DNA of 64,000 nucleotides from contig CAYZIY010000003.1 in NCBI GenBank assembly GCA_964478715.1, positions 6,669 to 70,668 of the forward strand, given 5' to 3'. Shown here in pieces: positions 8,794 to 58,900 of the stretch (positions are counted from its first letter, which is position 1; each line of letters starts with the position of its first letter). The notes below the pieces were generated by a model that ran no database searches, was not told where the DNA came from, and saw nothing but the letters and a program-made list of their open reading frames with translations. The stretch is from an uncultured Planctomycetales bacterium. Its GTDB lineage: Bacteria; Omnitrophota; Gorgyraeia; Zapsychrales; JBDRMG01. A program made the translations under genes and the position numbers.

Positions 8794-10476
8794 ATGTTGA
8801 CGAAAGAATTCATTTTTCAACTGATTGGCGGTTTAGGTCTCTTTTTCTTTGGTATGCGAGCGCTCTCCGAGGGATTAAAAAGAATTGCAGGAGAGCGTCT
8901 CAGGAAGATGTTGGAGGCAGTTACCAAGGTTCCCATTGTCGGTATAATGATAGGAGCCGCCGTTACGTGTCTTATTCAGTCCTCAAGCGCCACTACCGTC
9001 ATGGTTGTTGGTTTTGTCAATGCTGGTTTGCTGGCTCTCAAGCAAGCTATCAGCGTTATTATCGGCGCAAACATTGGAACAACTTTTACAGCTTGGCTTG
9101 TTTCATCCATGTCTGTTTTTAAAGTGACCCAGTATGCCCTTCCGGCCATTGGTATTGGATTTTTCATGATGGCGCTGGCTAGAAATAAAAAAAGAAAATC
9201 CTGGGGAGAGGTGATTTTTGGATTTGGTATTCTTTTCCTTGGCTTGAGCTTCATGAAGGACGCCTTTGATCCATTCAGAAGCAGTGAACAGCTCAAAGAT
9301 ATTTTTGTTCTCTTTAGCGATAATCCCCTCTTGGGTGTTTTAGTCGGGACGATTATCACCATCTTGCTGCAAAGTTCTAGTGCTACGATTGCCATTGTTC
9401 AGGTTCTTGCCTTTAATGGTCTGATCAGTTTTGAATCGGCAGTTCCCTTAATTCTAGGAGATAATATCGGAACGACCATTACGGCTCAAATGGCCGCTAT
9501 CGGCGCGAATCTGAATGCCAGGCGGGCAGCCATGTCGCATTCTCTTTTTAACGTCATTGGCGTTGCTTATATGTTATTCTTCGTCTATTCGGGAATATAT
9601 GTTCGATTTATTAATTATATTATTCCCGGTGAGTTGACTCTTAAAAATATTATGTTTTATATCGCTGTTTCACACAGTTTTTTCAATGTAATGAATGCTC
9701 TTGTTTTCTTACCGCTTATCGGGAGTTTAGCAAAAATAAGCACTTGGATGATTCCTAAGCGCAAAGGAACCATTGAGCCCGGAACTCAGTATTTAGAAAA
9801 ACATTTATTGGAGACCCCGCCAGTTGCCATGCAGCAGGCGCGCAGGGAAATCATTTATATGCTGAGCGTAGCTTCCAAGGCAATTAGAACAGCCGTCGAT
9901 GCCTTCATCAAGGTCGATAATAGAAAAATTCACGATAAAGTCATTGATTATGAGCGTATCACGGATAATCTTCAATCGGAGATCACTCAGTATTTAATCG
10001 AACTCTCGCAACGAGAATTGAGTGAAGAAGAATCCAGGGAGATTCCCGTTCTAATCCATAACGTAAACGATATCGAAAGAATTGGAGACCACTCCGAGAA
10101 TATTGCCGCTTTGGCACAAACGCGACTAGAGGAAAAACTCAATTTTACAGCCGATACAATGGAAGAATTAAAGATCATTTGGTCAGAAGTCGATAGCATG
10201 CTTGAGGAAACAGAAAAAGCTTTACGGGACAGCAGCACGGAAATAGCTCAGAAAATCCTTGAACGAGAAGGAAGAGTGAATGGATTGGAGAATAAATTTA
10301 AGCAAACGCACATTGAGCGTCTCAATAGACGTATTTGCCATCTGAATTCTAATTTCATTTTTCTTGATTTTATTGATAATTTGGAAAAAATCGCTGATCA
10401 TTTAACCAATATCGCCCAGGGTATTATTGGAAAAATGCAGTGGAGCACCTATAAGCAGGGGGAATCTAATGTTTAG
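8794..10476 (+). CDS. Na+/phosphate cotransporter (NptA family) fused to C-terminal PhoU-like domains (YjbB-like)
   Basis: Duplicated QSSSATTV / QSSSATIA motifs of Na/Pi-cotransporter II in a polytopic N-terminus. Helical C-terminal ~200 aa with PhoU-like repeats (NDIERIGDHSENIA; FIDNLEKIADHLTNIA). Confidence 0.8.
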   Translation: MLTKEFIFQLIGGLGLFFFGMRALSEGLKRIAGERLRKMLEAVTKVPIVGIMIGAAVTCLIQSSSATTVMVVGFVNAGLLALKQAISVIIGANIGTTFTAWLVSSMSVFKVTQYALPAIGIGFFMMALARNKKRKSWGEVIFGFGILFLGLSFMKDAFDPFRSSEQLKDIFVLFSDNPLLGVLVGTIITILLQSSSATIAIVQVLAFNGLISFESAVPLILGDNIGTTITAQMAAIGANLNARRAAMSHSLFNVIGVAYMLFFVYSGIYVRFINYIIPGELTLKNIMFYIAVSHSFFNVMNALVFLPLIGSLAKISTWMIPKRKGTIEPGTQYLEKHLLETPPVAMQQARREIIYMLSVASKAIRTAVDAFIKVDNRKIHDKVIDYERITDNLQSEITQYLIELSQRELSEEESREIPVLIHNVNDIERIGDHSENIAALAQTRLEEKLNFTADTMEELKIIWSEVDSMLEETEKALRDSSTEIAQKILEREGRVNGLENKFKQTHIERLNRRICHLNSNFIFLDFIDNLEKIADHLTNIAQGIIGKMQWSTYKQGESNV

Positions 10477-10642
10477 TTGGTATTGATATAAAAAGTTGAG
10501 CCTGCTATTTCTTCGTAAGAAAATTATATTCTTTGATTTTCTAGCAATATTCATAATTTTATTTATTGACAAAACACAGTGGAAACTGTTGTGAACAATC
10601 TGCTTATTCAGATATTTGATACAAAATTTTGGAGGAAAAAAC

Positions 10643-11332
10643 ATGATTAAAGGACGGATACTGATTGTTGAGGATGACCGGAACATTTCTCAATTGGTGA
10701 AGTATAATCTAGAAAAGGCAGATTATCCATGCGTTGTTACTATTACCGGAGAGCAGGCTCTCGAAGTTCTTGATCAGCAGGCTATTGATTTGATTATTCT
10801 AGATATCATGTTACCTAAAATGGATGGTTTTCAAACATGTAAGCAAATTAAGAAGAACCAGCGTCTGGCATCGATTCCTATTGTTATGTTGACAGCCAGG
10901 GGGGAAGAGGTCGATCGCATTGTGGGTCTGGAGCTGGGCGCAGATGACTACATTGTTAAACCCTTTTCGCCTCGCGAACTTGTTTTAAGAATTGACGCTA
11001 TTTTACGCCGCGGAAAACCGCAAGAAGAAAGAAAAGATATTCTGACCATAGGTCGCTTAAAGGTAGATCTTCCTCGACATAAGGTTACTTTAGCCCAGAA
11101 GGAGGTGACTTTAACGGCCATGGAATTCAAACTGCTAGTCCTTTTGGTTCATCGCAAAGGACGTGTTCAAACTCGTGATCAACTTCTGACTGATGTCTGG
11201 AATTTGGATGCGGATGTGACCACCCGGACGATCGATACTCATATTAAACGATTAAGGCAAAAACTGGGCAAATGCGGAAAAATAATTCAGACCGTCAGAG
11301 GCTATGGATATAAAATTAAGGATGATCAGTAG
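10643..11332 (+). CDS. phoB: OmpR/PhoB-family response regulator
   Basis: GGAGG ribosome-binding site then ATG 10643. ILIVEDD...LDIMLPKMDG...MLTARGEEVDRIVGLELGADDYIVKPFSPREL plus a winged-helix C-terminus (TLTAMEFKLL...RTIDTHIKRLRQKL). Located in a Pi-uptake locus. Confidence 0.8.
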   Translation: MIKGRILIVEDDRNISQLVKYNLEKADYPCVVTITGEQALEVLDQQAIDLIILDIMLPKMDGFQTCKQIKKNQRLASIPIVMLTARGEEVDRIVGLELGADDYIVKPFSPRELVLRIDAILRRGKPQEERKDILTIGRLKVDLPRHKVTLAQKEVTLTAMEFKLLVLLVHRKGRVQTRDQLLTDVWNLDADVTTRTIDTHIKRLRQKLGKCGKIIQTVRGYGYKIKDDQ

Positions 11333-11334
11333 CT

Positions 11335-13113
11335 TTGCAATTAAAAATTCATTATAAAATTACTCTCATTTTTGTCTTCATACTGGCTCTTATCTTTATT
11401 GGTCTGTTTATTAATCTTAACAAGAATCTAAAGCAAATAACTTTCCAACGTATCAGAGACCGGCTTGCCAAAGAGGCTGCTTTTTCTCAAACCATCCTTG
11501 AAGAATCTCATTTTAGAAATTTTGATTACAAAAAGATTGATGCTCTAGCCGATAAAATCAGCAATGATTTAGAAGTGCGCGTAACGATTATTGACAGGGA
11601 AGGTGTCGTCTGGGGTGATTCAGATCTGGACAATTCACAACTGAAGCAAGTTGAAAATCATCTTTATCGACCCGAAGTCCAAGACGCCATCAGCGATGGT
11701 TTTGGAGAAAGCCGAAGATTTAGCACAACTATTCAGGAAGACATGCTTTATATGGCTTATCCGTTTTCCGTTGATGATCAGGCTGGGGGGATTGTGAGGT
11801 TATCGATACCGTTGATCGAAATTCATATGCTTTCCAATAGCCTCAAGAGACTATTAGCTGTCTCTTTCGTGTGGACCTTTGCTTTGTTTATTCTCGTCAG
11901 TTTTTTTGCTTCTTTGTTTATTTCAAAACCAATCAATAGTATTTCAAGAATTGCGATGAATATTGCCCATGGCGATTTCTCGCAAAAGGCGTTAGTAAAT
12001 AGCAAGGATGAAATAGGCGATTTGGCCAAGGCTGTCAATGAGATGTCGGAGCAAATCCGATTACGGATTGAAGAAATAACGGCGAGTCGAACCCGCCTTG
12101 AAGCGGTTTTTTTGAGCATGTTTGAAGGCGTTATGATTGTTGATGCTAAAGGCTTAATCATACTCGTTAATCAATCTCTCAAAGATTTTTTGGGTATCAA
12201 CGAGGATCCTTTAGGTAAAAGACCTTTGGAAGTTGTGAGAAACTTGGAGATTCAGGAAGTAGCAGATAATGTGTTGTATCTAAAAGAAGGGATTGAATCA
12301 AGAGAATTGACGGTTCTTATTTCAGATCAGGAAAAAACACTTCTCATTCACGGCGCTCCCATCCAAAGAAAAGGTCATAATGAGGGTGCAGTTTTAGTCT
12401 TTCACGACATAACAGAAATCCGCTGTCTTGAAAAAATTCGTCAGGATTTTGTAGCCAATGTATCACATGAACTTAGAACGCCGGTCACTAATATTAAAGG
12501 CTACGCTGAAACATTAATTGAGGGTGCTTTAAGAGATAAAAAGAATGCTGAATCTTTTTTGAAAATTATTTATCGAGAATCCAGTAGGCTGGCAAATTTG
12601 ATTAGCGATTTGCTGGATTTGACGCAGATCGAAACAGGAAAACTTAAATTATCGCTTAGCGAATGCTCCCTTTATCCAATTGTTGAGCGTGTTCTTGCTG
12701 GGCTGAGCATAAAAATGAAAGAAAAAAATTTGACTGTAAAAAATGAAATAACTCAGGATTTACCCAAAGTTAAAGTGGATGTTGTAAGTGTTACGCAGGT
12801 TTTTTTAAATCTTATTGAGAATGCTATAAAATATAATCAAGAGAATGGGGAAATTATTATCACAGCCAAAGAATCCAATGGACAGGTGAAAATTTTTATA
12901 AAAGATACTGGTATTGGGATACCGGAAAAAGATATTCCGAGGATTTTTGAGCGTTTTTACCGCGTGGATAAGGCTCGTTCCAGAGAGATGGGAGGGACTG
13001 GTCTTGGCTTATCCATTGTCAAGCATATTATCCAGGCTCATCATGGGGAAATATTCGTAAATAGTGAATTAACTAAGGGTTCCGAGTTTTCATTTACTCT
13101 TTACAAAGCTTAA
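11335..13113 (+). CDS. phoR: PhoR-like sensor histidine kinase (TM-HAMP-PAS-HisKA-HATPase)
   Basis: TTG start 3 nt after the phoB stop. Two TM segments, a PAS region, H-box VANVSHELRTPVTNIKGY, and N/G boxes (NAIKYN, DTGIGI, GGTGLGLSI). Confidence 0.8.
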   Translation: MQLKIHYKITLIFVFILALIFIGLFINLNKNLKQITFQRIRDRLAKEAAFSQTILEESHFRNFDYKKIDALADKISNDLEVRVTIIDREGVVWGDSDLDNSQLKQVENHLYRPEVQDAISDGFGESRRFSTTIQEDMLYMAYPFSVDDQAGGIVRLSIPLIEIHMLSNSLKRLLAVSFVWTFALFILVSFFASLFISKPINSISRIAMNIAHGDFSQKALVNSKDEIGDLAKAVNEMSEQIRLRIEEITASRTRLEAVFLSMFEGVMIVDAKGLIILVNQSLKDFLGINEDPLGKRPLEVVRNLEIQEVADNVLYLKEGIESRELTVLISDQEKTLLIHGAPIQRKGHNEGAVLVFHDITEIRCLEKIRQDFVANVSHELRTPVTNIKGYAETLIEGALRDKKNAESFLKIIYRESSRLANLISDLLDLTQIETGKLKLSLSECSLYPIVERVLAGLSIKMKEKNLTVKNEITQDLPKVKVDVVSVTQVFLNLIENAIKYNQENGEIIITAKESNGQVKIFIKDTGIGIPEKDIPRIFERFYRVDKARSREMGGTGLGLSIVKHIIQAHHGEIFVNSELTKGSEFSFTLYKA

Positions 13114-13235: not shown

Positions 13236-13445
13236 GTGAAGAAAGATATCCTTCAAGTTATGACATCTTTAGATAGACATTATATTATTTCACGGTTGCA
13301 AAATGAGATTCAACATTTAGAGAATCTACTTATAGATATTCAGAATATTAAAGATAAAAACCGTGGTGAGTGTCATTATATTTCCAGATCCTTAGAGGGG
13401 GCGGAAGTAAATTTAAGGATTCTCAGGAAGTTTATTAACAGTTAA
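13236..13445 (+). CDS. small hypothetical protein (69 aa)
   Basis: ORF with an upstream GGAGG, lying between phoR and the porin gene. No recognisable motifs. Confidence 0.3.
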   Translation: MKKDILQVMTSLDRHYIISRLQNEIQHLENLLIDIQNIKDKNRGECHYISRSLEGAEVNLRILRKFINS

Positions 13446-13458
13446 TTGGGAGGTTTAT

Positions 13459-14745
13459 ATGAAAAGAGTTTTGTTTTTATCAAGTCTCATAATAAGCATT
13501 ATTGTCGGAAGTGCGTCTTTGTCTTTGGCCGGAGGCGAAATAGATGTGCTGGTTAATAAGTTGGTTGAAAAAGGTATCCTGACCCCGCTTGAGGCTCAAG
13601 TCATTCTTGATGAAACGAAGGTCGAAGTTTCTAAATCCATATCGGAACAAGACCACTCAACATTGCCCTCTTGGATTCAAAAAATAAAACTAAGCGGTGA
13701 CTTTCGCTTAAGACATCAATATGAGCGAAAAGCCAATGAACTTCAATCGAGAAACAGGGGGCGGATTCGTTATCGCCTGGGCATCGATGCGAAGATTTTT
13801 AATAATTTGAAAGTAGGCGCTGGATTAGCTTCGGGAGGTGATGACCCTCGATCTACAAATCAAACATTCGATGATAGCTTTGATACGGGTGATATCCGGC
13901 TTGATTATGCTTATGCGGAATATATGCCTACACGATGGTCTTCGGTTATCGGAGGAAAGTTCAAAAGGAAGGACTATCTCTGGGCCCCAACCGATCTTTT
14001 ATGGGATGGGGACATTAATCCCGAAGGTGGCTCTTTAGCGCTTTTCAATACTTTTGACTTTGAACCCGAATTGGATTGGTTTATTAATAGTGGAATCTGG
14101 GTGGTGGAAGAACTCAATAGCGATAATGATTCCGTTATTCAAGAAAGCGGGTTGGAAGACGATGTCGATCCATTTATGACTTATGTGCAGGGTGGTTTAA
14201 AATGGGCCGATGAAAACCTGGATGTCAAAGCAGCCGCCATCTATTACGGCTTCAATGGATTTCAGGGAGTTGATTTTCCATGGAGCAAAGACACCAACAC
14301 AAAATTTGGCGGTTCACCCGGATTTTTAGTTTATGATTATGATTCCTACGGATTTTCTGCTGAATTCGGGATGAAAGAACCTCTGAATATTACTTTTTTT
14401 GAGCGAGTAGCTGTGTTTGGAGACTATATTAATAATGTCGATCCGGAGGCGGATCATGCTGGGTGGGCAGCTGGACTCAAATTCGGCAATAAAAAAATCA
14501 AAGAACCAGGACAATGGCAGTGCAAGTATACTTATTCCTGGCTACAAAAAGATGCCTGGCCGGATATATTTCCGGATTCCGATCGCTATGGGGGCTCGAC
14601 CGATGTCAAAGGTCACGAAGCTGCCTTTAGCTATGGTTTAATGAACAACGTGACACTGGGATTCGATTATTATAATACAGACAAAATTGTAGGTACTTCT
14701 CAAAAAGAACATCTGGCACAGACGGATATCCTTATCAAGTTCTAG
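13459..14745 (+). CDS. outer-membrane beta-barrel porin, probably phosphate-selective (OprO/OprP-like role)
   Basis: Signal peptide MKRVLFLSSLIISIIVGSASLSLAG. Alternating amphipathic beta-strand pattern. C-terminal ...DILIKF (terminal Phe typical of outer-membrane barrels). Sits directly upstream of pstS. Confidence 0.55.
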   Translation: MKRVLFLSSLIISIIVGSASLSLAGGEIDVLVNKLVEKGILTPLEAQVILDETKVEVSKSISEQDHSTLPSWIQKIKLSGDFRLRHQYERKANELQSRNRGRIRYRLGIDAKIFNNLKVGAGLASGGDDPRSTNQTFDDSFDTGDIRLDYAYAEYMPTRWSSVIGGKFKRKDYLWAPTDLLWDGDINPEGGSLALFNTFDFEPELDWFINSGIWVVEELNSDNDSVIQESGLEDDVDPFMTYVQGGLKWADENLDVKAAAIYYGFNGFQGVDFPWSKDTNTKFGGSPGFLVYDYDSYGFSAEFGMKEPLNITFFERVAVFGDYINNVDPEADHAGWAAGLKFGNKKIKEPGQWQCKYTYSWLQKDAWPDIFPDSDRYGGSTDVKGHEAAFSYGLMNNVTLGFDYYNTDKIVGTSQKEHLAQTDILIKF

Positions 14746-14812: not shown

Positions 14813-15688
14813 ATGAAGAAAATTACCAGAATTGTACTAGCGACAGGAATGGCCTTATTCTTTGCGGTAGCGGTTTGCCGGGCGGATATGATTCAGATTA
14901 AGGGATCTGACACCCTGATCAATCTTGTTCAAAGATTATCAGAAGTTTATATGTATCAAAATCCAGGCAAAGTTATTGCCATTACCGGTGGAGGATCCGG
15001 AACGGGGATCGCGGCTCTTATTAATGGAAAATGCGATATCGCCAATGCCTCTCGTTTGATGAAAGCCAAAGAAGTTGACCAGGCCAATAGTGCCGGAGTT
15101 AATCCCCAAAGAGTGGTTATTGCTATGGACGGCCTGAGTGTTATTGTTAATTCCAATAATTCTGTCAGTCAGTTGACTATTGATCAGCTCGGAAAGATTT
15201 TTCGTGGTGAAGTTACCAATTGGTCTGAAATTGGTGGAAATGATATGCCTATTACGCTTTATGGCAGACAATCCAATTCCGGTACTTTCGTTTTTTTCCG
15301 TGAACAAGTCGTTAAGGGAGATTATTCCCAGAAAATGAATAGAATGAACGGAAATGCTCAAATCGTGGAAGCTGTCAAGCAGGATGCTTCCGGCATCGGG
15401 TATGTCGGGGTTGGCTATGTTAAAGAAGCCACCGGTATTTCGGTCTTAAAGGTTGCTGCTCGTGCCGGAGCTCCTTACGCCTCTCCGTTAAATTCGGATG
15501 AAGTTAAAAGCGGTGTCTATCCCATTGCCAGACCTTTAAATCAGTATGTGAACGGAATGCCTTCTGGAGCTGTACGGGATTTTATTGCTTTTGAGCTGTC
15601 TTCGGAAGGGCAGAAGATTGTTGAGGAAGAAGGCTTTTTTCCGCTTCCTCCGGAGTATCGGGAATATAATCAAAGATTAGAATTTTAA
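14813..15688 (+). CDS. pstS: phosphate ABC transporter substrate-binding protein
   Basis: Signal peptide. ITGGGSGTGIAALINGKCDIANASR and GYVGVGYV motifs of the PstS/PBP family. Confidence 0.85.
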   Translation: MKKITRIVLATGMALFFAVAVCRADMIQIKGSDTLINLVQRLSEVYMYQNPGKVIAITGGGSGTGIAALINGKCDIANASRLMKAKEVDQANSAGVNPQRVVIAMDGLSVIVNSNNSVSQLTIDQLGKIFRGEVTNWSEIGGNDMPITLYGRQSNSGTFVFFREQVVKGDYSQKMNRMNGNAQIVEAVKQDASGIGYVGVGYVKEATGISVLKVAARAGAPYASPLNSDEVKSGVYPIARPLNQYVNGMPSGAVRDFIAFELSSEGQKIVEEEGFFPLPPEYREYNQRLEF

Positions 15689-15761
15689 GAAAATCAATAA
15701 TAAAATTGTTTGGCTAAACTATAATTGATGATCCTTAAAAAGAAAAAGAGGCCATGTATTG

Positions 15762-16643
15762 ATGAATACAAGAGTAAAAGATAATATTATCCATGGCCTC
15801 TTTTTCTTTAATGGGATTATTGTTGTCTTTGTTCTTTTAGGGATTTTTTCTCTGCTGGTTTATACGTCTGTACCGGCGTTCAAGGAAATCAATCTTCTGG
15901 AATTTCTGACCGGAACTGTATGGAATCCGACCTCTTTTACAAAAGAGGTTTACGGGATTGTTCCTATGCTAGTCAGTACGTTTATGATTACTCTGGGGGC
16001 TTTAGTCATTGCGATTCCTCTGGGCATCGGTACAGCGGCATATCTGTCCGATGTGGCCAGTCCGCGAGTCAGGGAAATCACAAAACCTATTGTTGAGATA
16101 TTGGCTTCAATCCCATCGGTTGTTATCGGTTTTTTGGGTATTGTCCTTGTCGGACCTTTGATTTCCAAAATATTTAATACAAATAATGGATTGAATGCTG
16201 TTAATGGATCGATTTTGCTTGCCGTTATGGCGCTGCCAACAATTATTAGTATTTCTGAAGATGCCTTACGCAGCGTGCCGGCCTCCTATGAGCAGGCTTC
16301 GTTCGCATTGGGCGCGACAAAATGGCAGACTGTTATTAAAGTTAAAGTGCCGGCGGCTTTATCCGGCATTATCGCTGCCTCTATGTTGGGAATGGGTCGG
16401 GCCATCGGAGAGACTATGACCGTATTAATGGCTACCGGTTGCGCACCGGCTATGCCGGAAAGTTTTCTGGATTCTGTTCGCACCATGACGGCGACGATTG
16501 CTATTGAATTAGGTGAAGTTCCTTACAATACGACACATTATTATGCTCTATTCGGAGTTGGTCTCGTTCTTTTTATCATTACTTTTTTTATTAATCTAAT
16601 TTCAGACATCATTTTACATAAACACGAAAAAGTTAATCGATGA
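15762..16643 (+). CDS. pstC: phosphate ABC transporter permease PstC
   Basis: Polytopic. ATLAYLSDVASP..EI..SIP.VV and EASFALGATKWQT (PstC/PstA EAA-like loop). Confidence 0.85.
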   Translation: MNTRVKDNIIHGLFFFNGIIVVFVLLGIFSLLVYTSVPAFKEINLLEFLTGTVWNPTSFTKEVYGIVPMLVSTFMITLGALVIAIPLGIGTAAYLSDVASPRVREITKPIVEILASIPSVVIGFLGIVLVGPLISKIFNTNNGLNAVNGSILLAVMALPTIISISEDALRSVPASYEQASFALGATKWQTVIKVKVPAALSGIIAASMLGMGRAIGETMTVLMATGCAPAMPESFLDSVRTMTATIAIELGEVPYNTTHYYALFGVGLVLFIITFFINLISDIILHKHEKVNR

Positions 16644-17494
16644 AACCTAAGAAAGTCGAACAATTTGTTGGGTTTTTATTTTTAAGATCTTGCATGTTTT
16701 TTGTCCTCTTGGCTCTTTTTGTCATTTTATATGATATTTTCACTAAAGGATCGGGGATTATCAACTGGGAATTCTTAAGCCAGATGCCGCGTAAGGGAAT
16801 GACCGAGGGTGGCATTTTTCCGGCGGTTGTAGGAACTTTTTATGTTACCATTATAACAGCAATCCTAGCTATTCCTTTAGGCATGGGATGCGCAATTTAT
16901 CTCAATGAGTATGCTATAGAAAATAAGATTACCAGACTTATCAGAATGTCGATCCGTAATTTATCAGGTGTTCCTTCAATTGTTTACGGGTTATTTGGCG
17001 TTGTGCTTTTCGTGCAAATGTTGAATTTGGACACCTCGATTCTCTCAGCTGGATTGACTTTGGGCTTGATGACTCTACCTTGGACAATCACGGCTTCCGA
17101 AGAAGCCTTAAAGGCAGTTCCTGATTCCTACCGGGAAGGATCTCTAGCGCTTGGGGCTTCCAAATGGCAGACGATCTGGACCAATGTTTTACCTTACGCT
17201 ATTCCGGGTATGCTCACAGGGACCATTTTGGGGCTGGCTAGAGCTGCTGGAGAAACAGCCCCGATTCTTTTTACTGGAGCGGCCTTCTTTCTGCCGTTTT
17301 TGCCAAAATCCTGGTCAGACCAATTTATGGCTCTACCGTATCATTTGTATATTATGGCCACTCAGCATCATGCTATTGCCAGGGTGAGGCCGATTGCCTA
17401 TGGGACAGCACTGGTTTTGATTGTTTTGGTTTTTGGGATGAATTTATTTGCTATAATACTGCGTTATCGGTTAAGAAAGGTTAGAAAGGAATGA
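16640..17494 (+). CDS. pstA: phosphate ABC transporter permease PstA
   Basis: AIYLNEYA...[22 protein letters not shown]...[18 protein letters not shown] overlap with pstC. Confidence 0.85.
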
Positions 17495-18339
17495 CAACGT
17501 TGGAAAAGAGAGAGAAACGTATAAATAATATCCAGATACGGATTGAAAAGAATGAAAACCAATCCGATGAATCCATCGATCAAGGCATTTTGAAAATTCA
17601 AACCAAAGATTTTAATTTCTATTATGGAGATGTGCAGGCTCTCAAAAATATAAACATCGATGTATATCGCAATACAGTTGCGGGTATTATTGGTCCTTCG
17701 GGTTGCGGCAAATCAACATTTCTGCGTTGTATCAATCGCATGAACGATATTATTCCGAATATCAAATGCGAAGGGAAAATCAATATTGATAATAAGAATA
17801 TTTATGATGACGATATTGATGTGGTTGATTTAAGAAGAAAAGTTGGCATGGTTTTTCAGAAATCCAATCCTTTTCCCAAGTCTATTTTTGATAATGTGGC
17901 CTATGGGTTGCGGATTAACGGAATTCGAGATGCGAATTTTATCAGACAGAGAGTTGAAAAGAGCTTGCGGGATGCGGCTATATGGGATGAAATTAAAGAT
18001 CGTTTTAATAAAAGTGCATTTGAACTCTCCGGAGGACAACAGCAGCGGTTATGTATCGCTAGGGCTCTTGCTGTTCAGCCAGAGATTTTGCTCTTAGACG
18101 AGCCGGCTTCCGCACTGGATCCTATCGCTACGTCTAAAATCGAGGAACTCATTCATGAACTGAAGAAGAAATACACGATCGTTATTGTGACCCACAACAT
18201 GCAGCAAGCGGCCCGTGTTTCAGATTACACGGCTTTCTTTATGCTGGGAGAATTAATTGAGTATGATACATCGACCAGAATATTTACTAATCCATCGAAT
18301 AAGATCACCGAAGATTATGTGACGGGGAGATTTGGTTAA
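17491..18339 (+). CDS. pstB: phosphate ABC transporter ATP-binding protein PstB
   Basis: Walker [36 protein letters not shown], and the PstB-specific FRCINRMND motif. Confidence 0.9.
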
Positions 18340-18342
18340 ACT

Positions 18343-19428
18343 ATGAAGAGCATACTTTTTGTGTGTATTGAAAATTCTTGCCGAAGCCAAATGGCGGAAG
18401 GATTCGCCCGTCATTTAGGGAAAGGCATTGTTGTCGTAGACAGCGCCGGATCCAATCCCGCATCAAGCGTTGATTCTCTGGCTGTTGAAGCAATGAGGGA
18501 GGTAGGGATTGATATTTCAAAAAGACATTCTAAAGGATTTCATCAACTGACTTCTAAGAATTATAACTATGTGATAACATTAGGATGTAAAGATAAATGT
18601 CCTTTTTTGCCAGCAGACAAAAATTTTGACTGGAATATTTGTGACCCCAAAGGTGAAGATTTAGAAATCTACAGAATTGTTCGCAATGAGATTCAAGAAC
18701 ATGTCCGCGCCTTAATCAGTGAGATCACTATGGAAAATACAAAATTGGAAAGAGCAAGGAATGAAAGACATATTGATGAAGAGCTGGATAAGCTGAATAC
18801 AAACTTGCTGAAAATGGCTACGCTAACCGAAGAAGCGATTCATAAGTCCATCGAATCTCTAAAGGAACGCAATAGAGAGCTAGCTGAGCTGACAATCGAA
18901 AATGATAAAAAGATTGACGAGCTTGAAAATATAATTGAAGAAGGCTGTATTGAGCTTTTAGCTTTATTTCAGCCGGTAGCCAAAGACCTTCGTTTTATCA
19001 CAACGGGAATGCGAATCAATATGGAATTAGAGCGCATAGGCGATCTTACGGTTAATATTTGTCAGCGGGTAATCGAAATAGCAGATTATCCTCTTGTTAA
19101 ACCACTGGTTGATATTCCAAAATTAGCTGAAAATTCTAAACATATGGTTAAATTAGCTATCGATTCATTCGTTCGCCATGATCAGCAACTTGCTAAGCAA
19201 GTTATTTTTAGCGATGGGGAGTCGAATCGACTCAGAACGTCTATTATTGAAGAACTCGTTCATGAATATATGGTGAAAGACGGATCTATTTGTCCCCGTG
19301 CCGTTCCCTTGCTTCTTATCGCCCGAGACTTAGAGCGCATTTCCGATCACGCTTCCTCGATCGCCGAAGATGTGATCTACATGATTCAGGCAAAAATTGT
19401 TAAGCATCACCCCGAACGTCTTGCCTGA
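18343..19428 (+). CDS. fusion protein: N-terminal ArsC/LMW-PTP-fold (thioredoxin-coupled arsenate-reductase-like) domain + C-terminal PhoU
   Basis: N-terminal ~130 aa: LFVCIENSCRSQMAEGFAR (CX5R P-loop), AMREVGIDIS, VITLGCKDKCPF and NICDP. This is close to Bacillus-type ArsC, including the two downstream redox Cys. Residues ~135-361: two PhoU repeats (MELERIGDLTVNICQRV; DLERISDHASSIAEDV). Starts 4 nt after the pstB stop. Confidence 0.75.
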   Translation: MKSILFVCIENSCRSQMAEGFARHLGKGIVVVDSAGSNPASSVDSLAVEAMREVGIDISKRHSKGFHQLTSKNYNYVITLGCKDKCPFLPADKNFDWNICDPKGEDLEIYRIVRNEIQEHVRALISEITMENTKLERARNERHIDEELDKLNTNLLKMATLTEEAIHKSIESLKERNRELAELTIENDKKIDELENIIEEGCIELLALFQPVAKDLRFITTGMRINMELERIGDLTVNICQRVIEIADYPLVKPLVDIPKLAENSKHMVKLAIDSFVRHDQQLAKQVIFSDGESNRLRTSIIEELVHEYMVKDGSICPRAVPLLLIARDLERISDHASSIAEDVIYMIQAKIVKHHPERLA

Positions 19429-19617: not shown

Positions 19618-20868
19618 ATGGAGCTCAAAGAGAAATTTATTGAATCGATTGTTGAAGCGACTGAGGAATCATTCATGATGATTTTGGCCTTAACGCCTCA
19701 GCGTATTGATGGAATAGCTTCTTTAAGTCAACCCGGCCGTCTCATATGTAGCATAGAATTCTCCGGGAGCATCAAAGGCGCTATCGCTGTCAGCCTCTCC
19801 AACGAAGCGGCTTGTCAGCTGGCTTCCAAAATGCTCGAAGTCGAGATCAATGTAATCAACAAAGATGTGACGTATGCGATTGGGGAGTTTCTCAATACGA
19901 TTGTTTCAGGGGTGAGCGTGCGCTTGGCTTCTATTCCGCATATCTTTGATGCTTATTCTCCGGAGATTGTGAAAGGCAGTGAATTTGAGCAAACGATGAA
20001 AATACATGTTCATTATATTCATATGGGATTTCGTACAGAAATATTCAATTTTGATATGGTCGGTTATTATCGATTCCCTGACGAGGAAATGAAGCCGCCT
20101 CCGGCTGATGAAGAAAAGAGTTTCGACAGTGTGCTTGGTAATTCTTTAACGGTAAGCGATCAAACTGAAGATTTTTTGGATCAATCGACTCCCGAACAAA
20201 ATCATCCCCAGCATTCACCGGAAGCGGTCCAGGAAAAAATTCCGGAAGGTGAGAGCGAGAAATCAAAAGTTCATTCTATTCTCAAGGCCATTCTGAAGGC
20301 CGAAGATGAAGCCGTGGAAGAGGAAACGAAAGATAAATGCGATAAATCACCATCGGTGAATGAAATGATTTACACTGCTGGTAAAGCAGGGGAGCCTTCC
20401 GATAAAAATCTATTGCCTCGGCAAATATTAAAAAAAGAAGAAATAGAACAAAAACAGCAGAAAGAACAAGAGGGGTCTTCGGGACCAGAGAAAGAAAGTA
20501 AGGAAATAGAACCAAATCCGGAACAATCGGAGAGAAAAAAACAGGAGCAAAATGTTGATCAAGAGGAGCCGGATCTTTCAGAACCCCTACGGGAATCGCA
20601 TCAGATATCTGCTAAATCTAAAGAGACGCGGACAATAGATAAACAAGAAATCGCAAAAGCCCTAGAGAAATTGCTGGAAAAACCCGGTGACAAGTTTGAT
20701 CCTGCTGAAATTAAAGAACTTTTGGCTCCTTTGCTGAAATTGGATCACGTGGACTTAAGTCTCCCCGCTTCGACACAAGTAGATATGTCTAAAGATGTTC
20801 AGCTAGAATCGGAATCCGTCCGCAAGCTGGATGAATTGATCAAAAAAAACCGCAGTCTTCATCGTTAA
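19618..20868 (+). CDS. CheX/CheC-like fold domain protein with a long acidic/Lys-rich low-complexity C-terminal tail
   Basis: N-terminal ~150 aa (...SIEFSGSIKGAIAVSLSNEAACQLASKMLE...YAIGEFLNTIVSG...) resembles CheX. The C-terminal ~250 aa is E/K/Q/P-rich with repeated EKE/KQE motifs and is likely disordered. Confidence 0.4.
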   Translation: MELKEKFIESIVEATEESFMMILALTPQRIDGIASLSQPGRLICSIEFSGSIKGAIAVSLSNEAACQLASKMLEVEINVINKDVTYAIGEFLNTIVSGVSVRLASIPHIFDAYSPEIVKGSEFEQTMKIHVHYIHMGFRTEIFNFDMVGYYRFPDEEMKPPPADEEKSFDSVLGNSLTVSDQTEDFLDQSTPEQNHPQHSPEAVQEKIPEGESEKSKVHSILKAILKAEDEAVEEETKDKCDKSPSVNEMIYTAGKAGEPSDKNLLPRQILKKEEIEQKQQKEQEGSSGPEKESKEIEPNPEQSERKKQEQNVDQEEPDLSEPLRESHQISAKSKETRTIDKQEIAKALEKLLEKPGDKFDPAEIKELLAPLLKLDHVDLSLPASTQVDMSKDVQLESESVRKLDELIKKNRSLHR

Positions 20869-20986: not shown

Positions 20987-21313
20987 ATGGCTGCAGTAAA
21001 AGTGACTCAGGATTCGTTTGAGCAGGAAGTTTTAAATTCCGATAAACCTGTTTTAGTCGATTTTTGGGCAGAATGGTGCGGACCCTGCAAGATGATTGCT
21101 CCTATTATTGATGAGCTGGCAGTAGAATTTGAAGGAAAAGTTAAATTTTGTAAAGCTAATGTCGATGAAGTCCAGCAGTTGGCAACCCAATATAGCGTTA
21201 TGTCAATTCCCACCCTTGTCTTTTTTAAGGACGGGAAACCGGTGGATCAGGTGATCGGTGCTCAGGGCAAAGATCAGTTGATGAATAAAATTAACCAGCA
21301 TGTTTCCGCTTAA
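20987..21313 (+). CDS. trxA: thioredoxin
   Basis: 108 aa, WAEWCGPCKMIAP active site, typical TrxA length. Confidence 0.9.
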   Translation: MAAVKVTQDSFEQEVLNSDKPVLVDFWAEWCGPCKMIAPIIDELAVEFEGKVKFCKANVDEVQQLATQYSVMSIPTLVFFKDGKPVDQVIGAQGKDQLMNKINQHVSA

Positions 21314-52789: not shown

Positions 52790-52987
52790 ATGGATAGTTT
52801 TGTTATGACTGAAGAACAAATTCATGAATGGGTTAATCGGATGCAAATAAATAAAAGAAAGCCTTTTCTTCATGATAAGGATTTTCAAATAAAAGCTTGG
52901 CAGATTCATCAAAATTATTGCATGTTTGAAAGGAAGGCAGGGGTTTTGAAAATAACCCCTGTTTTTTTATGTGGGAGGCAAACATGA
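52790..52987 (+). CDS. small ORF (65 aa) translationally coupled (ATGA) to the giant adhesin gene
   Basis: GGAGA ribosome-binding site 5 nt upstream. Stop TGA 52985-87 overlaps ATG 52984 of the giant ORF. No recognisable motif. Confidence 0.3.
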   Translation: MDSFVMTEEQIHEWVNRMQINKRKPFLHDKDFQIKAWQIHQNYCMFERKAGVLKITPVFLCGRQT

Positions 52988-55900
52988 AAAAAACATTTCC
53001 CTATCTTTTGGCATTCTTAATGGCTTTATGGAGTCCAGCTAAGGGCTTCTCATTGGAAATCACCCATGTTTCCGGTTGTGCTGAGGTCGATACAGATTAT
53101 CAATGTGTTGAAATCGCCAGTTGTCAAGATCTTACTCAATCTAACACATATTATTTGCTGGCGGACGATATTGTTACCGGTGGAACGTGTTTTACCAATC
53201 ACGTCAGCAATATTCACTTGGATCTTAACAGCTATACCGTCAGTTATGCTCAGACGGAACCGGGACATGCCTTTTATGAACAATGGTCTAATCGGGATAA
53301 TGTTACGATTGAAAATGGCTTCATGATTGGCGGCTATCAGAACAATAGTCACGCTCTTTATTGGGTTACAGACGGATCAGACAACCTTGTCATTCGCAAT
53401 TTGAGCTTAAGCGTTGCCGGGGTCGAGACAAGCGGTATTAAAATCGGTACGGGCAATAATCTTGAGATTCATCATGTGAATATTGAAATGGATTCAGATA
53501 AAGCCGATCCATGCTCTCATTATGGAGAACCGATCGCTGGCATAAGCCTCGCTCATCGTGGAGGCGATATTGATATTCACCATAACTTTGTGACTGGAAC
53601 CGGAATGACTGGAATTGTCACTTCCAGCTGCGGGACCTATACCGAACCTCTAGAAATTCACAACAACTATATTAGTACATGGAGTCCGGTCAGGGACGGT
53701 TATGCTATTGGGATTTCGGGTACTAATAATAGCTGCTCGGACGGAACATTGATTTACGATAATACGATCAATCAACAAAACGGCCGAGGGATTATTGTTG
53801 ATGGATGGACCGGCAATGAATCTTACGGACCGGGAAATATCGAAATGTACGGCAATCATATTACGGTCAAAGAAGGGTGGGACTGCGAATATGATCGACC
53901 AGGTACAGCCGCAGGCATCCGACTAAGGTTTGGTGCTCATGATGTCTATGCGCACGACAATGAGATTTACGGTTTGGCCGGCACAGGTGTAGCTGTGGGA
54001 TCAGAGCCAGGTAAAGATGGAGCCACCGCCATTGGAATTTATTCGGGAAGCAGTCTTCCTTACGGGCTCAATAATCGATTTGAGAATAATTATGTGGAGG
54101 TTTCCACCAATGATGCCCGTTATCCGGCTATTGGCCTTTATGTCGCCGGAGGAGATCAAAATACCTCAGCGGCTTTTTCCCAGTTTTTAAACAATACTAT
54201 CGTTAGTAATAACAAACCGATCAGGATTGGATATAGCGATGGAGGAGGGTCTCAGGCCGATTTTGACTCCAACACCATTGTTCGTGGAGATAATCCCTTA
54301 GATTTTCATACCTACACGGTTGGATACTGGATTTTCGGTGCGCATCATATCGATTTTCTTGATTCGATCGTTGAAGGAGGCGCTAGCGCTCAGGATATTG
54401 TTTTTGACAGCGCCTGCGAAGGATCGTGCGCGAATTATGAAAATATCACCTTATCCTGGACTCTAAATTTGCAAGTTGAAAATAGTGGTGCCAATAGGAT
54501 TGAGGGAGCCAGTGTGCAAATCACAGATTCTGATAACCAAATAGTGGCTCAAGGTCAGACGGACGCACAGGGTCTGTTTAGTCAGACTCTAGTTGAGAAA
54601 AGCTTTGAGGGTATTCTTCAACCCGATGAGTTTATTCATACGCCTCATGAAATTCAAATTGAAAAAGCCGGTTATCAGACATATTCAGATTCGCTTGTCA
54701 TGGATTCAACAAAAACAGTGATTGTCAATCTTCAGGAAGGAAGTTCGAATCAGGCGCCCATTCTTGAACCTCTTACGGAATGGTCTGTCTTTACTGGTGA
54801 GAGTATTGAAATACTTGTCTCGGCTATAGATCCTGATAATGATCCTATAGAGCTTAGCGCTTCAACACTTCCTAGCGGAGCCCAATTCTTAGATTATGCA
54901 AACGGGACTGGAATTTTTAGCTGGATTCCTTCCGTGGATGGACTTTATTCGATCAGCTTCACAGCATCCGACGGTTATCTAAGTGATATAGAAACGTTAC
55001 AGATTGCCGTTCTTGCAGGCGCACCAGAAGGCAATCAGGCTCCCGTCTTATCTGAAATCAGCGATCAAACGGGGTACCCTTTTGAGCTTTTGACGTTTGA
55101 GGTGACAGCTACCGACTCTGATGATGATCTCTTAACTTATTGGGCCGAGAATCTTCCCAATGGAGCCGATTTTATGGATCAGACATTCATCTGGTTTCCC
55201 GATGATACTCAATTAGGTACTCACACAATAACGTTTTTTGTCAGCGATGGGGAATATACAGATTCCCAAGATGTAACAGTGACCATTCAAGACAGCGCCG
55301 GATGCGTTTATCCTCAGACGTATCCGCATCCCGACGGCTCATGCCGTGTGTTGCCGCATATTAATGTGGCCGGGGTATCTTATAGCAATCCTGATACAGA
55401 CCAAGAATATGACTGGCGAGTAGAGCATTATGATCTTCTCCTTTTTACTTTTGGGTCCTATGTTCTCGATGAATTTATTGGCGTTAAAGAAAGGTCGCCA
55501 GGATTGGTTTCTCTTAGATATGACAATATGCATTCTCACATCATGTATCACGATAGAAAAATGAATGCACTGGATGATTGGATTGAGAATCACCCAGAAT
55601 ATGGAGTTTTTGAAGATTATTTTCTTCATTATAAATATGATTGTATTCAAGCTGGAATTGAAAGAAAAGGCTGGAATCCCGATGAGGATTTGAATGTCAA
55701 TCACATTAGAGATGGTTATGAAGCAAACCCACAAACAGATCCTATTGATCCAAACCGCAGCGCTGACTTCAAGCATGAAAGCAGAATAATGACCAGATAT
55801 AACCGGACAGATCGTGTTTTTGCTAATGTGGGGCATGCTGGCTATCAAGCTTTTAATGCGCAATTTTCTTATGATGAAGTTCATACAGCCGATGTTCCAA

Positions 55901-58900
55901 GCATTGGCTATGATTTTGATGGAATGTTTGTGGATAATACAAATACTTATGCTTTTATGTGGGACAGTGTTCCAGACAATGAAGTTTTAGAATATCCGGA
56001 TGATCCTCAAAGAGAAGAAGATTGGCATGAGGATATGGTTGAAACTTTTGCTGCCGTCAAGGCCCAATTAGCTGATAAAAAACTCTATATTAATACGATA
56101 TATTTTCATCTTCCACAATACTTCCCAGTCACCGACGGTGATTTTAAGGAATATGTTATTCACGGCCGTTCTAGTATGGGAGGCGGCGAACCTTATTATA
56201 TGCATTTGGCAAGATTGGCAACAGAAGCAGAGCAATATTCTGTGTTAACAGTAGCTAATTATACTGATGAAAGCGGAAATCCGTTATATACGTTTTCAGA
56301 AGATAGGTATAAAATTTTCACCTTAGCCCAATATTATTTATTGCATAGTCCTTATACGTACTTTAACTATCAGGTAGGAAATACCTCATGGAATCATGAC
56401 TTACATGCGCAGTGGTTTGAGGCGATGGGATACAATATTGGAATTCCTATTGGTGATGAGTATATTTATGCCACAGATAATCAACCTAATGGGCAGGCCG
56501 CTGTCTATGCGCGGGAATTCACCAATGGGCTTGTTTTGGCAAAATTCAAACCGAATTGGGTGAATGACTTTGATCAACCATCGACGCATGATTTAGGCGG
56601 AAGCTATAAGCTTTTGGGTGTCGATGGATCTCTGGGGCCGGTGATCAATCAAATCACTTTGCGCAATTCACAAGCTGCTATTCTGATTCCTGCGAGCAGT
56701 GGCGGTGAAAATTACCCACCAGTTCTACAGCCAATCGGAAACAGAGAAGTGCTGGAAGGAGCCACACTTAACTTTAGTGTCTCGGCGAGTGATCCCAATG
56801 GAGATGTTCTTACCTATACAGCCGAAAATATTCCCGCGGGTTCAAATTTCTCGAATCAAACATTTACCTGGACACCGGGCTATGATCAAGCCGGAACTTA
56901 CTCTGTGAATTTTATTGTCAGTGACGGGGAATTAAGCGACAGTGAACAGATCCAAATCGCCGTTGTCGATAATGATCCTGATACCCAAGCGCCGTCAATT
57001 CCTCAGAATTTTACTGCCCAGGCTTTGTCAGGTGTCCAAGTGCAGCTAACTTGGGAGGTGTCAACAGATAATGTAGGCGTTACAGGCTATCATATTTACC
57101 GCGATGGAGCTGAAGTAGCAACTACGACAACAACGTCTTACCTTGATTCAAGCCTGGAGCAGTTAACGAGATATTCATACGAAATCTCTGCTTATGACGC
57201 AAGCGGAAATGAATCTGCGCTCTCAGATGCAGTCGATGTCACAACGCCTGGAACAACGACCGTCGAAGTGATCGGTTTAGTTCGAGAAGATTGCAGTGGA
57301 TATTCCAATTGCTATTCATCATTGACTCAGTGGGAGTCCAGCTATGGCGGCGTAGATTTTGGATCTTGCCCCCACGGTGATCTAGTCTGCGCTGATGCGG
57401 TGGCCATAGCGCAGATAGACGGCATTTGGAATAGTCCCGAAACCGGCCGAGTTGTGATCGACGGATGGACAACAGACGAGGATCATTATATCAAGATTTT
57501 TACTGCCCCTGAAGCCAGACATGACGGCAAATGGAACGAATCAAAATATCGCCTGGAAGGCTCTCATCTGTGGACACCCATTCTTCAAGTCAGTGAAGAT
57601 TATGTGGTTATCGATGGCCTGCAAATATTCAATAGCGCTACTCAAAATCAACCGGTGGGTGTTGTGATTGATAACCGTTCTACATTAGGAGGGGATGTTC
57701 GTATTAAAAATAATATTATACGATTTCCCAAAGAGGTTTTGCCGTATCAGGCTGGCATTACGCTAAGGATTGATCCTCAGACAACGGTAAAAGTTCTAAA
57801 CAATATCATTATCAATCCCTACGATGGTATTTCGGCCGCTCCCTGGAGCGGAGATAAAGGAACGTATGTGATTTATAATAATACTCTTGTCGACCCCAAG
57901 CGGTATGGGATTCAGTGCGCCTTTGAAGGCAGCGGTCAGGGCGCCCTTTTACTTAAGAACAATCTCGTTCAGGGTATCAATACTAATTATGATATTTATG
58001 GATCCTCAAATCTTAATCTCTTTGAGCACGCGGCTAATATTTCGGAAGATGCCTCATCGCCTGACGATGCGCTCAGAAACAAACAGGCTCTGTTCGTTGA
58101 GGAAGCTCTCGATGATTTTCATCTTTCCGAAAGCGATATCACAGCTAAGGACATGGGTGTGGATTTAAGCAATAATAGTTACGCTCCCTTTGACAATGAT
58201 ATTGACGGTGAAAATCGAGCATCACTTTGGGATATCGGCGCGGATGAGTATGTTTCTTCTGCTGTCAATCATCCGCCGGTTCTAGAAACGATCGATCCCC
58301 AGGAAGGCTTTATCGGTGATCCGATTATTTTTGAGGCGACAGCGACAGATCCCGATGGGGATGTCTTGAACTATTCGGCGACCGGACTTCCAGCTGGAGC
58401 GATTTTTGAGAATCAGGTTTTCAGCTGGACTCCTGACGAGACCCAAGAGGGTCAACATCAAATAACTGTTACGGTTGACGATGGAGATCTTGATGATTCT
58501 CAAGTGGTTTCTATTACCGTTGTTGGGATTAATGATCCTCCGATTCTTGAGCCAATCGGCAACAAAATTGTGAACGAAGGCGAGGAATTAAGTTTTACCA
58601 TCAATGCTATGGATCCGGATGAAGACGGTATTCTTTTGACTATCTCGACCGAGATCCCGGATGTTGTTCTTACAGATAATGGAAACGGCACAGCTGATTT
58701 CAGCTGGATACCTGGCTATGATCAAGCCGGCAGTTATCAAGCGACCTTTAACGCTCAGGATGAAGGCGGCTTAACAGATCAAGAGACAATCACCATTGAA
58801 GTCTATGGAACAAACCGGCCGCCTGAAATTGATCAGATCTCGGATCAAACAATTAATGAGGGAGAGGAGCTTATTTTTGATGTAATGGCTATAGATCCTG

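Follow-up and report, generated by a model that had tools for sequence, protein, structure and literature searches.

The 64,000-nucleotide stretch of DNA analyzed here (the window) encodes, directly downstream of pstB, a 361-residue protein in which an ArsC-like (LMWPc) domain is joined through a linker to PhoU (18343..19428, + strand). With a probability of about 0.55, we interpret this gene as encoding a bifunctional protein, its N-terminal third of ArsC type and its C-terminal two-thirds an ordinary PhoU, that serves the Pho operon as its arsenate reductase, is held to PhoU through a flexible linker and detoxifies arsenate entering via Pst. The parts are known ones in a new combination, and their pairing is common in environmental bacteria, either as neighboring genes or fused.

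The operon on the + strand comprises a phoB-like response regulator (10616..11332), a phoR-like histidine kinase (11335..13113), a small ORF, a Porin_5 outer-membrane porin that sits between phoR and pstS and is kept in related operons (13459..14745), pstS (14813..15688), pstC (15759..16643), pstA (16640..17494), pstB (17491..18339) and the fusion gene, in that order. The four pst genes were assigned from their translations and from the Pfam labels on an identical contig (L001). The ATG of the fusion ORF lies 3 nt past the pstB stop, in agreement with the position given in the initial annotation, and the reading frame contains no stop or frameshift. Pfam recovered both of the domains named there, LMWPc (PF01451, residues 4-124, E 1.5e-20) and PhoU (PF01895, two repeats, E 5.4e-41). 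An identical 361-aa protein was recovered from the contigs of two separate sequencing runs (SRR7048228 and SRR7048227). Since these are independent, the ORF is not an assembly or frameshift artifact, and the concern that it might prove to be two ORFs split by a stop or frameshift is dispelled. None of ten sampled ORFs of the 64-kb window matched an ars family. Scans between 10.4 and 21.4 kb were at chance level for promoters (30 found vs 27 expected) and revealed no terminator after the fusion gene; thus, they carry no information on Pho control or on the ends of the operon.

The N-terminal domain (residues 4-124; 18352..18714, +) has the LMW-PTP fold and retains the catalytic residues initially ascribed to it, Cys8, Arg14, Cys82, Cys86 and Asp101. 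Alignment with PDB references bears this set out, which disposes of the possibility that alignment would reveal a domain devoid of catalytic residues. The P-loop C8-I-E-N-S-C13-R14-S15 (CX5R-S; 18364..18387, +) contains the nucleophile Cys8 and Arg14. The redox loop C82-K-D-K-C86 (C-x3-C, within 'LGCKDKCP'; 18586..18600, +) aligns to 'GCGDVC' of Corynebacterium glutamicum ArsC1' (Cg_ArsC1'), and Asp101-Pro102 (18643..18648, +) forms the general-acid motif, as seen in the PDB alignment and in relatives. A CX5R(S/T) P-loop, two extra redox-loop cysteines and the Asp of a DP motif are among the features that characterize LMW-PTP-type ArsC. The Synechocystis-type resolving pair 'C-G-C' (Cys80/Cys82) is absent from the protein, which has G81-C82 and C86.

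We placed the domain among its relatives through sequence and structure searches. The best PDB sequence matches were Synechocystis ArsC (2l17, E 7e-26) and Cg_ArsC1' (3t38, E 5e-21). The similarity to Bacillus ArsC emphasized in the initial annotation is present, but the Bacillus and pI258 enzymes match more weakly (E 1e-14 to 1e-17). Foldseek returned arsenate reductases (TM about 0.85) above PTPs, and both YwlE and Wzb ranked under all arsenate reductases in the sequence search as well as in Foldseek. The domain scores below the cutoffs of TIGR02689 (Synechocystis-type arsC; 107 vs 157.6 bits) and TIGR02691 (arsC_pI258_fam; 83.3 vs 174.3 bits). However, a same-subfamily ArsC from a true arsR-arsC-acr3 operon also falls under the TIGR02691 cutoff, at 95.9 bits, which indicates that the subfamily lies outside this model rather than that the domain is a clear non-member. 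Wzb/Etp-type NCBIfam models gave 17.7 bits against a cutoff of 247 and 16.3 bits against 243.

Conservation among relatives points in the same direction as these searches in so far as the redox pair is concerned: Cys82 and Cys86 are invariant in all 93 relatives of the query's ArsC subtype, independently of the P-loop pattern with which relatives were retrieved. Cys8 and Arg14 are found in 64/64 pst-linked or fused and 14/14 ars-linked relatives, a conservation that is partly by construction because of that retrieval pattern. Among pst-linked or fused copies, 63 of 64 carry Asp101, as do all 14 ars-linked ones. A single position, 94, distinguishes the two groups, and thus the active site has not been remodeled in the pst context. 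The cysteine spacing is identical to that of Cg_ArsC1', and by analogy the domain may be coupled to thioredoxin, as the initial annotation had it; its scores fall short of the curated ArsC equivalog cutoffs. A thioredoxin gene (WCGPC; 20987..21313, +) two genes downstream of the fusion encodes a candidate reductant. No thioredoxin gene occupies the matching position in related loci L003-L007; since the neighborhood is not conserved, its membership in the system is doubtful and we did not include it.

The remainder of the protein is a complete two-repeat PhoU, as originally proposed (residues 143-352; 18769..19398, +), scoring 187.8 bits over these residues with the curated equivalog model phoU_full (TIGR02135, cutoff 130.25). 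It matches Aquifex PhoU (1t72) at E 1.4e-39 in sequence and with a TM of 0.95 and an rmsd of 0.8 in Foldseek. The AlphaFold2 (AF2) model contains the six helices of the bundle across residues 143-349. The two E/D-R-x-x-D motifs (E230/R231/D234 and E331/R332/D335) are invariant among 16 fusion proteins. Comparison with free PhoUs, which begin MERH[LF]D[ED]EL, identifies the linker (residues 125-142; 18715..18768, +) as what was once the arsC-phoU spacer and is now translated. In the query, Asn140 stands in place of the ancestral start Met, and the cell therefore probably makes PhoU in fused form alone, with an internal start at Met129 possible. The ancestral start Met is kept internally in 8 of 12 N-terminal fusions, and linker sequences are unrelated between fusion groups. 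AF2 gave a pTM of 0.59 for the query fusion (12-sequence alignment), with a pLDDT of about 61 at residues 131-140, and a pTM of 0.69 for the reverse-order PhoU-ArsC clade (124 sequences), with some 20 disordered residues linking the domains. Neither model contains a confident inter-domain interface, and given these pTM values and the low-confidence linkers we claim no docked ArsC-PhoU geometry. Thus, of the suggestion that PhoU couples the enzyme to the Pst/PhoR hub, tethering is supported by the flexible linker, whereas coupling finds no support in a docked interface.

To place the fusion in context, we surveyed the neighborhoods of the 80 nearest ArsC genes, drawn from species-representative genomes that are mostly Omnitrophota. 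At about 51 of the 80 loci, arsC is adjoined by pstB and/or phoU, the genes abutting or overlapping. The gene in the window is therefore neither rare nor unique, but represents in fused form a pstB-arsC-phoU arrangement that is widespread. The genes are usually separate, as in 44 of the 80 cases against 1 that is fused, and complete split operons number at least 39. Four further loci (L031, L061, L063 and L074) were dropped from the pst-linked set, their weak 'PstB' matches (27-35% identity) being generic ABC ATPases. Classical arsR/acr3 operons hold 14 of the 80 genes. Members of the same ArsC subfamily, at 48-56% identity, occur in arsR-arsC-acr3 or arsC-arsP operons, in which Acr3 is supported by TIGR00832 (430-450 bits vs a cutoff of 283). 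A neighbor-joining tree of 128 residues placed the window's ArsC domain near the ars-operon copies. We treat this as long-branch noise and do not read a separate recruitment into it, since raw identity is higher to pst-linked copies (55-60%) than to ars-operon copies (52-55%). ArsC distances co-vary with those of PhoU (r 0.32, p 0.003) and PstB (r 0.29, p 0.001), values comparable to the r 0.41 for PhoU versus PstB, and ArsC divergence is similar (0.36 vs 0.38). Taken together, these figures indicate that arsC has long belonged to the operon and has been under constraint. In the PhoU relatives nearest to that of the window (P0022, P0039 and P0044), phoU follows pstB directly with no ArsC, implying that the ArsC module is dispensable.

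Fusions exist in both domain orders and with three ArsC subtypes. The first search yielded at least 16 fusion clusters and a census at least 120 more, and the PhoU tree contains at least nine changes of fusion state (9-11 in 60 bootstraps). A large PhoU-ArsC clade comprises at least 120 clusters, the named members being Deltaproteobacteria and Burkholderiales MAGs; CX5R[ST] is kept in 113 of 120 and the Cys pair in 110 of 120. Fusions are also found among the RefSeq proteins of the cultured Thermoflexus hugenholtzii. At every fusion locus for which gene context was checked, pstSCAB precedes the fusion. Database fusions of either order are all annotated just 'PhoU'. In five PhoU-LMWPc fusion clusters the fold is retained but the nucleophile Cys and/or the Arg is gone, with the P-loop Arg missing from four of them. 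Two long multi-stretch hits were rejected because they contain no PhoU: P0299, a Symbiodiniaceae protein with three ArsC domains, and P0321, an ArsR-ArsC-x-ArsC protein.

PhoU in studied bacteria, from work in E. coli, contacts PstB and PhoR and restrains both Pst and the Pho regulon, and the high-affinity phosphate importer is a known route of arsenate entry. If the enzyme works as pI258 ArsC and Cg_ArsC1' do, the CX5R-loop nucleophile Cys8 would attack arsenate, arsenite would be released by Cys82, and Cys86 would then close a Cys82-Cys86 disulfide, with a thioredoxin-type reductant resetting the enzyme. Since the gene is the last pstSCAB cistron, the reductase would be made exactly when the phosphate importer is made. 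Arsenate leaking in under phosphate limitation could then be reduced at once, to be exported by a pump whose gene lies elsewhere. The fusion probably arose when the short spacer separating adjoining arsC and phoU genes came to be read through, and its linker would tether the enzyme to PhoU, expected at the cytoplasmic face of Pst. That the proximity so gained matters, giving the tether a benefit beyond co-expression, is a tentative suggestion that we hold at slightly less than even odds. Dead active sites in a minority of fusions are unexplained by pure detoxification, and a regulatory role is possible.

Such a role would be that of a switch, in which the ArsC-like domain mainly senses arsenate, oxyanion or redox state for PhoU. 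Arsenate turnover or thiol oxidation would drive the known reduced/oxidized conformational change of the redox loop, which alters the restraint of PstB by PhoU or the signal to PhoR, so that Pst is closed or the Pho response retuned while arsenate enters. The recurrence of the fusion in both orders and its stability across a large clade fit a switch, as do the five clusters in which a catalytically dead P-loop accompanies retained fold motifs, suggestive of a non-catalytic partner role. The lost PhoU start Met of the query, which probably leaves the fusion as the sole form of PhoU, is a further point in favor. However, arsC is mostly a separate gene in the survey, most fusions strictly keep the catalytic residues, and the Arg on which oxyanion binding depends is missing as well from four of the five degenerate P-loops. 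AF2 draws the junction as one continuous helix (residues 107-175), which would also favor a switch, but this helix is of low confidence at the linker, and the disordered linker of the reverse-order model predicts no fixed interface. We consider a switch unlikely. Its specific form, in which the domain gives the Pst-PhoU-PhoR complex an arsenate/redox sensor of its own and the thiol state of that sensor, set by arsenate turnover, gates the PhoU brake on PstB, is somewhat less probable still. If the sensor were real, the phosphate importer would be shut or the Pho regulon retuned upon arsenate entry, versions with dead sites would serve solely for docking or regulation, and PhoU would have gained a ligand-responsive input domain.

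The initial annotation had also allowed for a phosphatase acting on phospho-Tyr or phospho-Arg. The LMWPc domain would then dephosphorylate a phospho-protein of the Pho pathway (phospho-Tyr, phospho-Arg, or PhoR/PhoB), and PhoU would bring the domain to its target. The LMW-PTP fold, the CX5R-S loop and the Asp-Pro general acid are common to phosphatases, and a weak phosphatase activity persists in ArsC enzymes with this fold. A phosphatase, however, has no need of the invariant Cys82/Cys86 pair, arsenate reductases outscore YwlE and Wzb by sequence and fold, the Wzb/Etp-type models, whose cutoffs lie near 245 bits, score 16-18, and close kin reside in arsR-arsC-acr3 operons. We therefore favor the reductase and regard a phosphatase as improbable. 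Least probable of all is that arsC and phoU are separate genes, merged either by a recent pseudogenizing mutation or by a mistake in sequencing or assembly. Relatives do carry the genes split far more often than fused, but the ORF recovered from two runs and the many other fusion clusters refute an artifact, and the replaced PhoU start codon, with both domains intact, also argues against it.

How PhoU senses phosphate status and relays it between Pst and PhoR is unsettled in the field, as is the way in which cells deal with the arsenate unavoidably let in by high-affinity phosphate uptake. An arsC conserved in pst operons and repeatedly fused to PhoU, in either order, across several phyla suggests arsenate reduction as part of the phosphate-uptake module in many environmental bacteria. 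For arsenic research, this constitutes a new, Pho-linked class of arsC context. For phosphate signaling, natural PhoU chimeras, including those of T. hugenholtzii and the pseudo-enzymes, could serve to probe whether PhoU acts at the transporter. There is also a systematic annotation gap, as hundreds of two-domain proteins carry the name PhoU alone.

As the initial annotation had surmised, no description of an ArsC-PhoU fusion turned up in searches of the openly available full-text literature, nor did one of an arsC between pstB and phoU. Synechocystis ArsC (2l17) is the best match in sequence and fold (TM 0.85, 43% identity) but is a stand-alone, glutaredoxin-type enzyme with its own 'CGC' resolving pair in place of G81-C82...C86. 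Cg_ArsC1' (3t38), a thioredoxin-coupled three-cysteine arsenate reductase (PDB title; PMC6514093), shares the LMW-PTP fold and Asp-Pro. Query Cys8/Cys82/Cys86 align with chain positions 88/162/166, and 'ITLGCKDKCP' with 'ITMGCGDVCP'. It differs in being about 35% identical, in having an N-terminal extension of about 80 residues, and in belonging to an ars cluster without a pst or phoU link. Canonical PhoUs (Aquifex 1t72, T. maritima 1sum, P. aeruginosa 4q25) match over their full length and share the E/D-R-x-x-D motifs and the post-pstB position. They are stand-alone proteins of about 220-240 aa, whereas the query adds a 140-residue enzyme domain and has lost PhoU's own start codon. In Na/Pi-cotransporter-PhoU proteins (YjbB-like; TIGR00704 plus PhoU), PhoU is likewise covalently joined to a phosphate-handling component, but the partner is the transporter itself and not an arsenate-handling enzyme; one such protein is encoded in the window at 8794..10476. 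Arsenic islands with pst/pho/phn genes have been attributed to arsenate/phosphate mimicry (Li et al. 2013, PMC3834237). These represent island-scale synteny around aioBA in Proteobacteria, with no arsC between pstB and phoU and no fusion described. Finally, LMW-PTP-type ArsC is joined to an arsenic-pathway partner in the Acr3-ArsC (Mycobacterium) and ArsR-ArsC fusions (PMC6514093). There the partner is an arsenite exporter or an arsenic repressor, whereas in the query it is a phosphate-signaling protein on the import side.

The ArsC-like/PhoU fusion gene (18343..19428, + strand) is a single uninterrupted ORF encoding 361 aa, and its ATG start lies 3 bases past the pstB stop codon. Its 5' neighbors are a Na/Pi-cotransporter-PhoU gene, phoB, phoR, a small ORF, a Porin_5 porin gene and pstSCAB. 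Pfam assigned residues 4-124 to LMWPc (PF01451, E 1.5e-20) and found two copies of PhoU (PF01895, E 5.4e-41), while residues 143-352 scored 187.8 bits with the NCBIfam full-length PhoU equivalog, above its cutoff of 130.25. This bears out the initial annotation of one frame, without stop or frameshift, that joins an ArsC-like domain to a complete PhoU after pstB. The gene immediately 5' of phoB and phoR is the Na/Pi-cotransporter-PhoU gene (8794..10476, +; TIGR00704, 269.6 bits; PF02690 and PF01895); two distinct PhoU-domain fusion proteins are therefore encoded within 10 kb at this locus. The small ORF between phoR and the porin gene (13236..13445, +) is present in several Omnitrophota pho-pst clusters (63-72 aa; L003, 5115..5306, and L005, 4995..5213, in related loci). 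Similarity between loci is weak (23-33% identity), the ORF had no Pfam match, and that in the same slot of locus L007 appears unrelated to the others. The product of the gene 3' of the fusion (19618..20868, +) has a CheX-like domain at residues 43-127 (PF13690) and, beyond it, a tail of ~250 residues with a very high content of Glu, Lys, Gln, Pro and Ser, apparently of low complexity. Farther downstream, an open frame of >3,690 codons (52930..63999, +; translation includes MKKTFPYLLAFLMALWSPAKGF) reaches past the window end and looks like the gene for a giant secreted or surface protein; the only other ORF of at least 110 aa in the last 11 kb is 55339..55884 (-).

The best solved relatives of the ArsC-like N-domain are arsenate reductases (2l17, 3t38, pI258 and Bacillus ArsC), and Foldseek likewise retrieved arsenate reductases (TM ~0.85). 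PDB alignments place Cys8-x5-Arg14-Ser15, Cys82, Cys86 and Asp101-Pro102 over the catalytic elements known from arsenate reductases of the LMW-PTP fold, confirming the catalytic residues originally proposed for this domain. The thioredoxin-dependent Cg_ArsC1' (3t38) has the same C-x3-C spacing in "ITMGCGDVCP" as the window protein in "ITLGCKDKCP". Synechocystis ArsC is the top overall match, yet its "CGC" pair is absent from the window protein. The N-domain falls below both curated ArsC equivalog cutoffs (107 vs 157.6 and 83 vs 174.3 bits). The C-terminal part is closest to PhoU structures (1t72, E 1.4e-39; Aquifex PhoU, Foldseek TM 0.95), and the fusions share its E230-R-x-x-D234 and E331-R-x-x-D335 motifs without variation. 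Foldseek returned no solved chain covering both domains. An AF2 model built from a 12-sequence alignment has both domains folded (mean pLDDT 86.8, pTM 0.59) and joined by a single long helix (107-175), with low confidence at the junction. For the clade with the reverse order, PhoU-LMWPc, an AF2 model from a deep alignment (pTM 0.69) has a disordered linker of ~20 residues, which speaks more for loose tethering than for a fixed interface. The modeled PhoU consists of six successive antiparallel helices, which would bring both termini to one end of the bundle; N- and C-terminal fusions should therefore put ArsC at a similar location.

The initial annotation had proposed a survey of the fusion's spread. 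A first homology search found 16 clusters with both domains, 12 in the window's order and 4 reversed. Homologs with a named source are nearly all Candidatus Omnitrophota MAGs. The nearest relatives of the N-domain are stand-alone ArsC proteins (~130 aa, 55-60% identity), encoded exactly between pstB and phoU in 2 of 3 contexts inspected, with genes that abut or overlap. Scanning species-representative genomes with the N-domain alignment gave 596 relatives. Among the best 80 of these, classified by context, ~51 loci have the ArsC-like gene beside a true pstB and/or phoU, 14 are arsenic operons (arsR, acr3, arsP; acr3 neighbors verified by TIGR00832, 430-450 bits) and 15 lie elsewhere; the pst/phoU-linked loci include 41 complete pstB-arsC-phoU arrangements of separate genes and one fusion (L072). 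The order is pstB-phoU-arsC at L058 and L085. Source names extend beyond Omnitrophota to Nitrospirae, Elusimicrobia, Saganbacteria, Ratteibacteria and Ignavibacteria MAGs. In four Omnitrophota MAG loci (L025, L036, L040, L044), one or two more pstB copies, without phoU there, follow ~2.7-3 kb past pstB-arsC, which suggests tandem pst operons with arsC ending the first. The best 150 matches of a phmmer search over 1.84 billion representatives added 12 PhoU-LMWPc proteins and one 389-aa LMWPc-PhoU cluster, which includes RefSeq proteins of the cultured Thermoflexus hugenholtzii and Thermoflexus sp. A profile of 16 reverse-order fusions then retrieved both Pfam domains in all 120 best clusters inspected (467-503 bits, no drop-off), so there are at least 120; named members are Deltaproteobacteria and Burkholderiales MAGs. 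Fusions from these wider searches are annotated solely as "PhoU" or "phosphate transport system protein", and pstSCAB precedes the fusion in every context examined. One further cluster, P0299 (Symbiodinium, Cladocopium), comprises dinoflagellate proteins of ~456 aa with three tandem Synechocystis-type ArsC domains and a "CCGCG" motif; it was found solely through its ArsC match, lacks PhoU, and was rejected as a fusion. The window fusion is the tip of a far larger pattern.

Pst is a known entry route of arsenate. We consider a Pho-operon arsenate reductase tethered to PhoU the best explanation (probability roughly 0.55): a working enzyme would be made on the same transcript as Pst. This reading is favored because Cys82 and Cys86 are invariant in 64 pst-linked or fused copies and Asp101 is kept in 63, with the same residues in 14 ars-operon copies; these sites are independent of the retrieval pattern (C[VI]ENSCRSQ), by which P-loop conservation in this set is partly a matter of construction. 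The reverse-order clade is also mostly intact, with CX5R[ST] kept in 113 and a Cys pair in 110 of the best 120 clusters. The only site separating the two groups is position 94, which is His in 94% of pst-linked or fused copies and Arg in 79% of ars-operon copies; the window protein has Asn94 (18622..18624), just past the redox loop.

In five reverse-order clusters (P0246, P0269, P0345, P0382, P0384), the nucleophile Cys, the Arg or both have been lost, yet the fold motifs remain, a misfit with pure detoxification. Two pst loci lie on the P0246 contig (ENA ERZ1426829, 50.6 kb), both with a 371-aa PhoU-LMWPc fusion; P0246 itself has a catalytically dead P-loop (S-V-E-D-A-G-R-G) and no redox cysteines. 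A non-catalytic, regulatory or docking role of the ArsC-like domain is accordingly a tentative second reading, although catalytic residues persist in most copies. The interpretation in the initial annotation is supported in part: of the reductase and the phosphatase it allowed for, the reductase is the one we favor. A protein phosphatase is improbable, since the N-domain scores ~17 bits against phosphatase models with cutoffs of ~245, and Foldseek ranked YwlE and Wzb below arsenate reductases. Least probable is a frameshift or assembly artefact, which is excluded by the identical 361-aa protein on contigs from two different sequencing runs.

Free PhoU proteins begin with MERH[LF]D[ED]EL, and the start Met is kept internally in 8 of 12 N-terminal fusions (Asn140 in the window protein); linkers are 10-13 residues and unrelated between groups. 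Read-through of a short spacer between two genes would leave just such a trace. An NJ tree of 102 PhoU domains gives 9 changes of fusion state (9-11 in 60 bootstrap replicates), and the fusions contain three ArsC subtypes (GCxDxCP, VCDx5-6CP, LCAEEVCP). In the window's closest PhoU relatives (P0022, P0039, P0044; 67-73% identity), phoU directly follows pstB, indicating that the ArsC module is gained and lost at that exact slot. Across 39 split operons that are complete, distances between ArsC sequences are correlated with PhoU distances (r 0.32, p 0.003) and with PstB distances (r 0.29, p 0.001), compared with r 0.41 for PhoU and PstB, and mean divergences are alike. This indicates that ArsC is a long-standing, constrained operon member.

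Searches of openly accessible full-text literature turned up no account of arsC lying between pstB and phoU and none of an ArsC-PhoU fusion. The suggestion that the fusion is undescribed is plausible for the literature, but the architecture itself is plentiful in sequence databases. Its parts have precedents: arsenic islands with pst and pho genes (PMC3834237) and ArsC fused to Acr3 or ArsR (PMC6514093) are documented, and Na/Pi transporter-PhoU fusions are a catalogued family with one member in the window. We rate the fusion as a novel variant built from known parts, whose main value lies in the general pattern it reveals more than in the single gene.
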